Source: a virus (taxonomy: Duplodnaviria > Heunggongvirae > Uroviricota > Caudoviricetes). From it: a DNA stretch of 13,143 bases. The stretch is from IMG/VR virus record IMGVR_UViG_2531839476_000019, one strand, 5' to 3'. Position numbers: made by a program. This document shows positions 6,001 through 12,000 of the stretch, one piece after another. Within the stretch, counting starts at the first letter, position 1, and every line of letters begins with the position of its first letter.

Positions 6001-9000
6001 GCGTGATTACCCTGGCCTGCTCCGGGATAATGCCATTCTCATCTGACTCCAGAATGTCTGCCGGTCCCAGTCGCAGCTGTGCTGTAAGTAACTCCCCGTT
6101 TTCACGGTCATCATGCTTTCCGCAACCACACAGACGCTCCATAAGCTTTCTCAAAATATTCATGTCATTCTCCTGTTCTGCCTGTATCACTGCCCACTTC
6201 ATCCAGTCCCTTAACATCCTGCCACGGCCCGTCGCCAAATCTGACCTGCAAATGCTGAAACAGCCCCTGAACCTGTGTGGCATCTTTGGGGTCAAGAAAG
6301 GTCAGTCCGGTGATGAGCGCACCATCTGTACCCGGGAACCAGCCATTGCTGTTTGTCTCAATAATGCTCGCCGGCCCCAGACGAAAACGGATTTGTGTCT
6401 CCCCCGGGTCGCCCTTCGGTCCCTGAGGTCCGGTTGCCCCCACCGGGCCAGCCGCACCTGTTTCTCCTTTCGGTCCCTGTGGGCCTGCCGGGCCTGCTGC
6501 CCCGGTGTCTCCCTTTGGACCCTGTGGACCTGCATTTCCCGTCAGACCGGTCTCTCCCCGCTCTCCCCTGTCACCTTTCGGCCCCTGCGGGCCTGCCGGA
6601 CCAGCATCACCTGCCGGTCCCCGTTCGCCGGTTGCCCCGACAGGGCCGGTGTCACCGCGCTCTCCCTTATCACCCTTCGGCCCCTGAGGACCCGCGGGCC
6701 CCTGTTCCCCCTTTGGCCCGGGAGGTCCCACCACGGTGGGGATTCTGTTTACGGCTTCTTCCGCCGCTATCCTGCTTTGTTCCGCTGACTGTGCGCTTTC
6801 TGCTGACTCCCGGGCTTTTTCTGTTGCGGTCGTTGCATCCCTGGCTGCATTACCGGCTGCACTTTCTGCCGTCTTTCTTGACAATTCAGCTTCTGCTGCA
6901 CTTTGTGATGACTCACTGGCTTTTTGAGCGGCCGCAGAAGCCGAGGACGAGGACGCCTCCTCTGACTGCTTTGCTGAGGCTGCACTTTCTGCCGCCTGCC
7001 GGGCTGACTCCGATGCCTCCCCTGCTGAAGTGTCAGCATTTGCCGCGCTCTCTTCTGCCTGACTGGCTGATATGCCGGCATTCCTCGCTGACGTCTCCGC
7101 CTCTCCGGCATTCTTCTTCGCCTCCTCAGCGTGACGCGCCGCTTCTTCCACCATCAGTTCAAAACGACGCAGTGCCTCCGGCCGGACGTCATCCTCCGAC
7201 ATGGCACCGAGAAAATCATTCAGCGTACCGGGTTGAGAATCTTCATACACGGTGATGGTCCCGGCATGTGACGGCGGGAATCCTTCCACCAACAGAATAA
7301 CGCTGTACTGCCCGTACTCAACGTCCATGCTGTAACGCCCGGCTTCATCCGGATTTTCTGAGGCCAGCGTGTTCACCACCACCGTGGTGCTGTTACGTTT
7401 TGCTTTCAGCTGGATTGTGCAGTTCTGTACCGGTTTTCCTGTGCCGTCTTTCAGTACACCTGAAATCTTTACTGCCATATTCACCCCACAAAAAAGCCCG
7501 CCTGAACCGGCGGGCTGTCATAACACTGTGTTACCTGGCTAATCAGAACTTATAACCGACACCCACGATGAAACCGTCAGTGCGCCAGTCGCCGCTGCCG
7601 GAGCCCTCATAAGCAATATCAATGGCCACGGATTCGGTCGGGTTAAACTGCACGCCAGCTCCCCACGCCAGAGACGTGTTGCTGTGGCGACCGTCATCAC
7701 TTCCGGTCAGCACGTCGTGCGTTTTCCCCTTGTTGTCAGTTACGCGGAGATAATCCCCGGAGAAAGTCGACACACGGCTGTAAGCCATACCCGCCATCGC
7801 ATACGCGCTGAACCATTCATTCACGCGCACAGACGGCCCCACCATCACGCTGAACCAGCGGTTACGCACGGAATCTTCATGCCAGCGGGTATCGCTGTAA
7901 CGGGTAAGCTGGCGATTCTTGTCTCCTGCATAGCTGAATGACGTCACCAGCCCCAGTGTGTCCGTAAACTCATAACGGTATTTCACGTTAATCCCGTTCA
8001 GATCATCACTGCCGGGAACGTTCGTCCGGGCATGAAGATACCCCGCGCTCAGCGTGGACTGATGTTCAGACGCCCATGCAGGCGCACCGGATACGGCCAG
8101 ACAAATGGCTGCGGACAAAATGGCGGCATAAAGTTTACGCATAATTACCTCTCGCTTTTCTGCAATAAAAAAGGCGTCATTTCTGACGCCCGTTCTGGGT
8201 TATAAAATTCAGCTGATACTGATACCTGCTGTGGATTTTTTCATCACCACAACCAGCAGATCGCTGATACTGGTTGTTGGTGTCCAGTTATTCGCTCCTG
8301 ATGAAGATACGGTGAATGTCAGTGTCAGCGTCCCCTGTCCGGCAGGCATATCTATAACTGAGGAAAATACGCCCTGAGCATCCGTCGTGGACTGATTAAA
8401 AATCTCCTGACCATTGCGGGTCACTCTTAACCGGCAGGTTGAATACCAGTATGACTGTTGGTTATTACTGTTGAAATTCTCATGCTTACCACCGCGGAAT
8501 AACACTGGCGGTATCATGACCTGCCGGTCAAATTTCTGATCATCACTGATTCTTACCGTGATGGTGCCACTGGCATAAGTGCTCGTGCGGGGGAAAGACT
8601 TGCTGACCGTTTTGACAATATCACCTTCAATCTGGTTGGCTGACAGTTTCCCCTTAATCTGACAGTTCTCATTAATCGTGACGTTGTTGAGCGTCCCTGA
8701 GTTCGCATTCACACTGCCACTGATATCCGCATTTTTAGCGGTCAGCTTTCCGTCTGATGTCAGGGAAAATACCGGAGGGCTGCCACCGCTGGTAATGGTG
8801 GGGGCTGTCAGGCGCTTCAGGAACACGTCGTTCATGAATATCTGGTTGCCCTGCGCCACAAACATCGGCGTTTCATTCCCGTTTGCCGGGTCAATAAACG
8901 CGATACGGTTAGCGGCAACCAGAAACTGGCTCAGCTTGCCTTCCTCCGTGTCCTCCATGCTGAGACCAATACCCGCGACATAATGTTTGCCGTCTTTGGT

Positions 9001-12000
9001 CTGCTCAATTTTGACGCCCCACATGGCATTCCACTTATCGTTGGCGTCCTTCCACTCTTTCGAAAACTCCTCCAGTCTGCTGGCGTTATCCTCCGTCAGG
9101 TCGACTTTTTCCAGCAGCTCTTTACCGAGATGGGATTCGGTTATCTTGCCTTTGAAAAAATCCAGGTAACCTTCCGCATCATCGCTCGCCCGACCGACGG
9201 CCTCCACGAATGCCGATTTGCCAACGGTGTTCACACTGCGGATATAAAAGTAATAATCATGGCCCGGTTTGATATTGATACTGGCGGCTATCCAGTACAG
9301 CCCCGAGCCAAGGTAGCGGGCTGTGGTTTCAACCTGCCTGATATCGGTAATCCGCTTTTCCGAGAACCAGAACTCAAACTGTACCGTCGGATCATAAACG
9401 GCAAGATGCGGCGTTGCGGTTATCTGAAAATAGCCCGGCGTCAGCTCAATCCGCGACGGTGCTGCCGGTGCGGCAATCCGGAACGATACCGACGCCGGAT
9501 CGCCCTGCTGCCCCCACGCATTTACTGCCCGGACTGTCAGCCTGTAGTTCCCCGGCGCCAGTTGTGTGAAGCGGTATGTGGTTTCCGCCGTCCGGGCTGT
9601 GCTGACCAGCCGCTCACTGCCGTCATCCGCGGCCACGGTCAGGCGAAGCATGAAACTCACGCCCTTCACCACCTTCGGCGTATCCCAGCGGGCCAGTACC
9701 TGGTACTCCCCGCTGTCTGCGGTGACTTCGGCAGTCAGGTGCTGCACTGCTGGCGGCGTGACACCATTCACCGTGCCGCTCTGGTCGCCGTCAAAGTGCG
9801 CCCCGTTATCCACGATGGCTTCTTTTTCCGGTACATGCTGCACGGCGGTGATAGCATACGTGCCGTCATCGTTCTCACGGATACTCACACAGCGGAACAG
9901 GCGCTGGCGCAACGTCGGCAACTTCAGCCCCCACACGCTGTATTCAGCAACACCGTCAGGAACACGGCTCACTTTCACCTTCACGCCGTCGGTGACGGAC
10001 TGAACCTCCACGCTGATCGGATTGCCACTTCCGTCAACCAGGCTTATCAGCGTGGTACCGGAGGATGGCAGCGTGATTTCACGGTCGAGCGTCAGCGTCC
10101 GGGTCTGGCTGCTTACCGCCAGCACGCGCCCGCCGGTGCTGATACCGGCATAGTCATCATCACAGATTTCAATGACATCGCCCGGCACATGGCGAAGCCC
10201 TTCGGCACCCACGCTGAAGTCCACGGTCTGCGTTTCCAGCAGTTCTGTTTTAATCAGCCACAGCCCGGCGCGGTGTGCCCTGCCCCCGGCTGGTCAGCCA
10301 AAGGCATCCATCTTCGTGACGTGACGCCTAAACGGGCAAATGGCCTGCGTGTCCTCCACAAGCTCTGTCGCCGTCTCCCAGCCGTTATTCGGGTCAATCC
10401 AGTTCACCTCAACGGCATTATGGCGGTCCTTCAGGGCGCTGAAGCTGTAGCGGAACGGCGCGCCATCATCCGGCATCACCACATTACTGCGGTTATAGGT
10501 CCACACCTTATCCGACGGTCGGTCCTGCACGAACGTCAGCGTCTGCCCGTTCCATACCGGCATACAGCGCATCGCCGAGCAGAAATCACTGAGCACATCC
10601 CACGCCTTGCGCTGTGTGGTCAGGTACGCATTACAGGTGATGCGCGGCTCCGTGCCACCAGAGCCGTCCGGCACCGACTGGTCGCAGTACTGGCCGATGA
10701 CATACAGCGCCCATTTATCCACATCCGCTGCACCAAGACGTTTCCCCATGCCGTAGCGCGGGTGGGTCAGCATATCCCACAGACACCAGGCCGGGTTGTT
10801 GCTGTATGCCGGTTTTAACGTTCCGTCCCAGATACCGCTGTATGTGCGTTTTTCCGGGTCGTAATTCGACGGCACCTGCAGAATGCGTCCGCGCAGATGA
10901 TAATTACGGCTCACCTGCTGGCTGCCGAACTGCTCCGAATCCACCTGTACGCCGACCAGTGCCGTGTTCGGGTAGCCCTGTTTCACATCGATGATTTCGG
11001 TGTATGACGACCAGAGCGTTTTGTTCTGCAGCTGGTCTGTGGTGCTGTCCGGCGTCATCCTGCGCATCCGGATATTAAACGGGCGCGGCGGCAGGTTATC
11101 CACCACCACCGAGGCCAGATACTGCGAGGTGGTTTTGCCCTTAATGGTGATGTCTTTTTCCGTCACCCAGCCACCATTACGCTGTATCTGAACCAGCAGG
11201 CGGACTTCCGACGGATTCCTGTCCCCCTTTGAGGTGGTTTCCACCAGTGCCTGCACACCAAGGTCAGGCGCAGACGGTCAATGTTTGCCGACGTGATGGT
11301 CCGGGTTATCGGCGTGTCATATTTCACTTCCGTACCCAGCACCGTCTCGGAGCCGGAGGATTCAAACCCCTCCGGCGGTGTCTGCTCCTGCTCACCTGAC
11401 CGGAACACCACCGTGACGCCGGAGATATTGGTATTCTCCTCACTGTCCAGCACCGGCGTACTGTTCAGCAGCACGCTTTTTAATCCATCCACCGGACCTT
11501 CTATCGGCCCTTCGCTGATGGCATCGATCACACTCAGCAGCTGCGTGGACTTCAGGTTGTCCTTCGCTTCGCGCGGGGTATGCCCCTTACTGCTGCCTTT
11601 ACCCATTCCTCACGCTCCATAAACGACAAAACCGCCCGGAGGCGGTTTCACATAAAACATTTTGCATCAGCGACCAATCACCACGATTTGACCACCATCC
11701 CCTTCGTCTGCCGTGCTGATCTCCTGAGAAACCACACGTGACCCCACGCGCATTTCACCGTACAGAACAGGCAGAACATTGCCCTGGGCAACCATGTTAT
11801 CCAGTGAGGAGAAATAGGTGTTCTGTTTGCCGTTATCTGTACTGGCTGCCGTGGGCGTCCTGGCTTTCGGTGCCAGCATCTGCGCCACTCCGCCCAGGAT
11901 CATACTGGCCCCTGCCGCATACATGCCCGATACAGCCGCGGCCCCCAGCCAGCCCACAGGGTTCCACCATGCCACCGCAATCAGCGCCGCCCCAAGCACC

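Follow-up and report, generated by a model that had tools for sequence, protein, structure and literature searches.

Is the tail tip gene of the virus-derived record IMGVR_UViG_2531839476_000019 broken in the bacterium that carries it, or is it broken only in the deposited sequence? The record, a stretch of 13,143 nucleotides (nt) of tailed-phage DNA that was analyzed at its full length and is called the window here, corresponds to positions 335437 to 348579 of contig AKNI01000032.1 (GenBank; assembly GCA_000268205.1), part of a 2012 draft genome of the enteropathogenic Escherichia coli (EPEC) strain C342-62. The gene in question, J, encodes a lambda gpJ-type tail tip (host specificity) protein, is located on the minus strand at positions 8209 to 11606, and is interrupted as deposited. 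An earlier note, made from the sequence without database searches, had pointed out the interruptions and, for the case that they are genuine, had drawn the picture of a tail-defective prophage that keeps its cargo. Neither half of that picture holds up: the lesions, although present in the record, are most likely not features of the organism, and the cargo is itself damaged.

The J gene as deposited

With a length of 3398 nt, against the usual 3399 nt, J falls apart into three open reading frames (ORFs) of 147, 320, and 671 amino acids (aa), at 11163 to 11606, 10294 to 11256, and 8209 to 10224, respectively, all on the minus strand. The first of these consists of 115 native J codons followed by 32 out-of-frame codons and is present in GenBank as EIQ69827.1. 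The second ends at an in-frame TGA and was called as a gene of only 290 aa, starting at 11166. The remainder of J (8209 to 10293) is in frame with this second fragment and was called from a GTG at 10224, yielding the 671-aa product EIQ69825.1.

Reverting eight small edits is sufficient to obtain an uninterrupted J of 1132 codons. The translation of this repaired gene contains the Pfam domains FNIII-A_GpJ, Phage-tail_3, Ig_J, Ig_J_second, Phage_Tail_Tip, and Ig_GpJ_C, all scoring above the curated cutoffs, and the same gpJ families are hit by the three fragments as called. Moreover, residues 1 to 1131 of the repaired protein align with residues 1 to 1131 of lambda gpJ (PDB 8iyk, chain J), with a score of 2291 bits. 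Domain content, full-length similarity, and synteny (L-K-I-J-lom-tail fiber) are therefore those of a gpJ gene, whereas the open frame of approximately 1130 codons that such a gene should have is disrupted twice, by the frameshift in codon 116 and by the TGA in codon 438.

The lesions, base by base

J was aligned first with six relatives and later with 43 to 138. These alignments bore out the core of the earlier note, namely, that the gene contains both a frameshift and an in-frame TGA inside a short compensated out-of-frame patch, but they also brought to light a second patch, at 10321 to 10340, that had been overlooked. On the source contig, the patches are found at positions 345714 to 345776 and the frameshift is found at 346695/6 (window coordinate plus 335436).

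The frameshift is a one-base deletion at codon 116, within the FNIII-A domain, where the base between 11260 and 11259 is absent (ACCTT[C]GGTG, minus strand); relatives have ACCTTCGGTG, while the window has ACCTTGGTG. The note had described a T-run that is one base short near 11259. A base is indeed missing at this point, but in the closest relatives the lost base is the C of TTC. The 105 other J copies examined all span 12 nt at the frameshift site, reading, for example, CTGACCTTCGGT, whereas CTGACCTTGGT is present in the contig of the window only; none of the 105 carried the codon-116 deletion. Two IMG/VR contigs (L058 and L168) have one-base deletions of their own at the J site homologous to 11255 to 11266, each of them different and each private.

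The two compensated patches, both read on the minus strand, are 8 codons apart, with an unchanged VTKMDAFG between them. Patch 1 (10321 to 10340), the more upstream of the two and part of the second J fragment, combines several changes (+T, TAC to TTA/-C, -T, and A to C), such that ATT GCC CGT TAC GGT CGT AAC in the relatives becomes ATT TGC CCG TTT AGG CGT CAC in the window; the encoded ARYGRN is replaced by CPFRRH, and the frame is regained after 6 codons. In patch 2 (10278 to 10296), a T has been lost from the Cys codon TGT, producing the TGA at 10294 to 10296, and a G has been gained in the run at 10278 to 10280. As the note had proposed, two nearby one-base changes thus restore the frame yet leave a stop. 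Here, the relatives read GGC TGT ACC AGC CGG GGG CAG GCA and the window reads GGC TGA CCA GCC GGG GGC AGG GCA, so that six codons are out of frame and CTSRGQ is turned into a stop followed by PAGGR. In all homologues, the position of the TGA is occupied by TGT or TGC (Cys), with CTSRGQ in frame. The note had also remarked that simple decay does not usually leave compensating indels around a stop; this was correct and became our main clue to the origin of the lesions.

The lesions are private to a single contig

The 281 nt around the patches were compared with 12,750 J places in 5,426 complete E. coli genomes; the highest identity was 97.5%, and at no place did it reach 99%. Among these copies is that of strain FHI_NMBU_03 (L007), in which J is intact, and all of its differences from the window in this region are inside the patches. 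The 271 nt around the frameshift were matched at up to 99.6% in the complete genomes, with one gap as the sole difference. Not one 28-mer of either patch was found in 28 gigabases (Gb) of E. coli genomes, nor were the lesion strings found in species-representative genomes, Joint Genome Institute (JGI) metagenome contigs, or IMG/VR viral contigs. As a control, we used the 47-nt flank directly upstream of patch 1, which is present as an exact match in at least 120 viral contigs. The ordinary sequence followed in all 118 of the flank-sharing contigs that were readable downstream, one of which has a 1-nt deletion of its own. The in-patch change AAC to CAC is present as natural variation in 1 of the 118. 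Similarly, in an index of 153 billion genes, the J fragments of 147, 290, and 671 aa were each found on exactly one contig.

The search for a sister genome with the same prophage and the same J allele was negative among the complete E. coli genomes and approximately 130 fetched loci; the best full-length J among the complete genomes was 97.9% identical, and the best match to the whole window covered 85% of it at 91% identity. Neither the window nor divergent J types nor the 28 Gb of E. coli genomes yielded a donor or template for the patch sequence. The lesions are absent from all independent sequences of the allele.

With a TGA in the place of a conserved Cys codon, the site superficially resembles a selenocysteine/Cys pair, and one could imagine recoding, with the TGA read as selenocysteine or read through for Cys and with a programmed ribosomal frameshift at codon 116. 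However, the TGA arose from a lost base and not from a T-to-A substitution, the five codons that follow it are scrambled from the conserved TSRGQ to PAGGR, and an in-frame TGT or TGC is found in 118 of 118 flank-sharing contigs and in all J types examined. Nor is the codon-116 break seen in any relative, so that there is no conserved recoding signal. Because the stop originates from a lost base, conserved residues are scrambled, and neither the stop nor the break is shared by relatives, we rejected both selenocysteine insertion and programmed frameshifting, which we regard as scarcely credible.

Few substitutions and tightly clustered indels

When J is set against the 43 to 138 relatives, five one-base indels are private to it, as are two substitutions, one outside the patches (at 10112) and one inside. 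Apart from the lesions, nucleotides 1 to 788 and 855 to 1494 of J are identical to those of strain FHI_NMBU_03. The changes are far from evenly spread: over 1259 nt, the window differs from its nearest relative at nine points, and a segment of 59 nt holds seven of these (simulated P = 2.5e-6); a segment of 61 nt holds four of the five private indels (P = 1.2e-4). The spectrum is thus error-like, being clustered and having indels that far outnumber substitutions.

These numbers are difficult to reconcile with slow pseudogene decay, in which the lesions would have gathered independently, long after J had lost its function. While the presence of several lesions in J and of damage in other genes of the element is what such decay would leave behind, five indels acquired in this way would have brought many more substitutions, spread along the gene, and gradual, independent decay is thereby excluded. 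Instead, J is identical to its intact relative over approximately 1.4 kb outside the lesions and, over its 3.4 kb, carries approximately one substitution that is private; independent events would not produce clustering with P values of approximately 1e-4 to 1e-6, and none of the lesions was found in other genomes. We consider slow decay highly improbable and would set very little store by it even in conjunction with recoding. This leaves two possibilities, namely, technical error or an unusual local event combined with a separate deletion.

An error in the draft consensus is the likelier source

The lesions are present in the record, and they are private, indel dominated, and clustered. Since they are seen in one contig only, consist almost exclusively of indels, and are packed so tightly, errors in the deposited consensus of the C342-62 draft are more likely than biology; from the sequence comparisons, we put the probability of this explanation at roughly two in three. 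The case for which the earlier note had made its argument, that of genuine lesions, is, accordingly, the less likely one. Its statement that the tail tip protein cannot be made does hold for the sequence as deposited, which does not encode a full-length J, but it depends on doubtful bases.

The location of the lesions adds to this. The window ends, at position 13143, where the contig ends (348579), inside tail gene L, with the rest of the prophage lying beyond; the assembly broke within a repeated tail module. In complete E. coli genomes, J occurs at a median of 3 places per genome and at up to 14, and the lesions of the window are 1.5 to 2.9 kb from the contig end. The draft nature of the source, the proximity of the contig end, the multicopy character of J, the lack of a donor, and the clean ORF that appears upon reversion all support an artifact.

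As for how the errors might have come about, the two compensated patches could go back to a brief run of low-quality base calls or to a mis-gapped alignment of reads. Errors of this kind, in which bases are shifted between neighbors, would keep the length while scrambling six codons at a time, one of which happened to become TGA. The base missing at 11259/60 may be the result of the same kind of error, as may a shortened T-run (T5 to T4) in the effector gene espW, discussed below. If this explanation is correct, the intact J would be expected to read ...ATTGCCCGTTACGGTCGTAAC...GGCTGTACC...CAGGCA... at the patches and ACCTTCGGTG at the frameshift.

Several observations weigh against a technical origin. 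First, the adjacent 5.85 kb of chromosome does not contain a single indel relative to another E. coli genome, which argues that the assembly is not generally sloppy. Second, another suspect change, the shortening of a poly-A run in espW (A8 to A7), turned out to be a real and widespread allele. Third, the prophage is demonstrably decaying, as evidenced by an IS5 element inside espM2. Fourth, most of the J indels fall outside long homopolymers. The commonest errors of sequencing platforms occur in long homopolymers. Fifth, finished genomes commonly contain broken J genes: those of C7, UTAK-10, and LSU61 are annotated as frameshifted in RefSeq, and of 82 related loci long enough to hold a complete J, 12 have a frame that ends before reaching 1100 codons. 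Finally, the case for an artifact is built from deposited sequences throughout.

Very recent inactivation as an alternative

Many of these same observations speak for a rival explanation, in which J was inactivated genuinely and very recently in a decaying prophage at ssrA, with the codon-116 deletion killing the gene and a single complex event subsequently creating the patched region. Two candidates for such an event are a short tract of error-prone repair synthesis and slippage at inverted repeats. The element is visibly degrading, as is apparent from the IS5 insertion and the widespread espW frameshift allele, and the LSU61 gene mentioned above, annotated as frameshifted, is the J of the corresponding prophage in an O157 strain. 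Early stops in 12 of the 82 related J frames and the absence of indels from the neighboring chromosome fit this scenario as well. In addition, the equivalent prophage of O157 Sakai, Sp17, is described as severely degraded and as defective in its host specificity function (PMC2669165).

Both patches, furthermore, overlap short inverted repeats of the ancestral sequence (CGTTACG/CGTAACG and GGCTG/CAGCC). This coincidence favors a local mutational event at first sight, but sequence context of this type troubles sequencing chemistry and replication alike, and we gave it no weight. The predicted fold of the patch region, moreover, is not unusual (z = -1.4).

On the other side of the balance, neutral decay would be expected to leave a spectrum opposite to the one seen, in which five private indels stand against one or two private substitutions. 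Four indels within 61 nt, canceling in pairs, require an unusual single event for which a template was not found, and the lesions did not turn up in any other genome, assembly, or metagenome searched. We therefore see recent inactivation as a possible but clearly less probable explanation than consensus error. More doubtful still is the specific proposal that the patched region is the genuine scar of one in vivo event, i.e., a short tract of slipped synthesis or error-prone repair spanning the two neighboring small inverted repeats, which introduced four to six indels of one base, canceling pairwise; to our knowledge, such mutational scars are rarely caught in wild genomes. Should the inactivation nevertheless be genuine, the prophage would be tail defective and could be mobilized only with the help of coresident lambdoid prophages.

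The prophage and its effector cargo

J is an ordinary lambda-type tail tip gene in a Sp17-like, effector-carrying prophage at ssrA. The transfer-messenger RNA (tmRNA) gene ssrA, which serves as the chromosomal attachment site, is located at 40 to 402 on the plus strand, with smpB, ratA, and bamE in the chromosome beyond it. The order of genes in the window is a DinI-like gene, espM2, nleG, espW, an nleG fragment, the tail fiber gene, lom, J, I, and K. At the junction of the prophage just past ssrA (576 to 596), the lengths of A, C, and T runs deviate by AAA and T from those in O157-type relatives (AACAAAAACACCCCCGTTTTTTTT versus AACAACCCCCCCGTTTTTTT).

The claim that the prophage keeps its cargo did not survive inspection of the effector genes. 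The espM2 gene is split by IS5, which occupies 1886 to 3080, has inverted ends, and is flanked by a CTAA target duplication (1882 to 3084 in total); this insertion is genuine decay of the cargo region. A 138-aa EspM2 product, considered as a marker of the lineage, was discarded when it proved to be an ordinary gene call from an internal start, rather than a product of the IS5 junction. A full-length, intact ORF is left for only one nleG gene (3397 to 4047).

The third effector gene, espW (4126 to 5182, plus strand), is read in three frames as a consequence of two differences in homopolymer runs. The first, T5 to T4 at 4437 to 4441, is private to the C342-62 assembly. The second, A8 to A7 at 4645 to 4651, is a widespread natural allele, the 175-aa product of which is present in 315 blocks of the gene index, including ones from complete genomes. 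We had considered the espW frameshifts as a sign of a generally error-prone assembly; with the A7 allele being real and 5.85 kb of chromosome being free of indels, this idea failed in part. The poly-A run has eight residues in intact espW genes (O103 12009 and O157 LSU61), seven in the window and many other loci, and nine in four loci. This variation reflects either a slippage hot spot that switches the effector off or a recurrent homopolymer miscall. Several other assemblies have contigs that end exactly at the T-run or A-run of espW.

Tail genes I (11667 to 12314) and K (12212 to 12964), both on the minus strand, are intact ORFs without private indels. On the other side of J, lom (7543 to 8142, minus strand), encoding an Ail/Lom outer membrane protein, is intact, and its exact protein is widespread. 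The gene with a prophage tail fiber N-terminal domain (6165 to 7484, minus strand) is an intact ORF as well; in its G+C-rich part (6479 to 6560), it differs in length from relatives, by 45 nt and by 9 nt, with the frame being kept. In the source annotation, the gene called in this region is a 286-aa ORF of the other strand, instead of the 439-aa fiber ORF.

Comparison with known systems

After conceptual repair, J matches lambda gpJ (PDB 8iyk, 8iyl, and 8k35) from end to end, with all six domains, and the gene order K-I-J-lom-tail fiber of lambda is also that of the window. The differences are the frame, which in the deposited sequence breaks at codon 116 and runs into a stop at codon 438, and the C-terminal receptor-binding part, which is closer to that of "A8 gpJ 713" (9wca; 918 bits) than to that of lambda itself (8xcj; 695 bits). 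The latter scores suggest that the C-terminal part of J (8209 to 9470) confers a receptor specificity unlike that of lambda.

With consensus errors in draft assemblies, i.e., artifactual frameshifts in repeated prophage genes, the lesions have in common that they occur in a single assembly, are clustered and length-conserving indels, are situated near a contig end in a multicopy gene, and give way to a perfect ORF upon reversion. They differ from such errors in lying mostly outside long homopolymers and in being accompanied by a clean flanking chromosome. In practical terms, frameshifts and stops in multicopy prophage genes of draft assemblies need support from reads before they are given a biological reading.

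The closest known relatives of the element as a whole are the Sp17-type ssrA prophages of O157:H7 Sakai and related strains, as well as of O103 and others, which share with it the integration site (ssrA, on the smpB-ratA side) and the order of the cargo. Integration at ssrA with espM2, nleG, and espW beyond the tail fiber genes, together with the degraded state of the visible part, is also what was found in the window, although its J is of another type, with approximately 77% identity to the O157 copy. In Sakai, Sp17 is described as severely degraded, with defects in host specificity and morphogenesis, and prophage defects in that strain range over frameshifts, deletions, and IS insertions; defective prophages are nevertheless still transferable with help from others (Asadulghani et al. 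2009, PMC2669165). In contrast to those reported frameshifts, deletions, and IS insertions, the lesions in the window form a private cluster of one-base indels. If they are genuine after all, a broken J would be nothing out of the ordinary for a decayed prophage of this kind, and one more defective host specificity gene would join those already known from degraded prophages with effector cargo.

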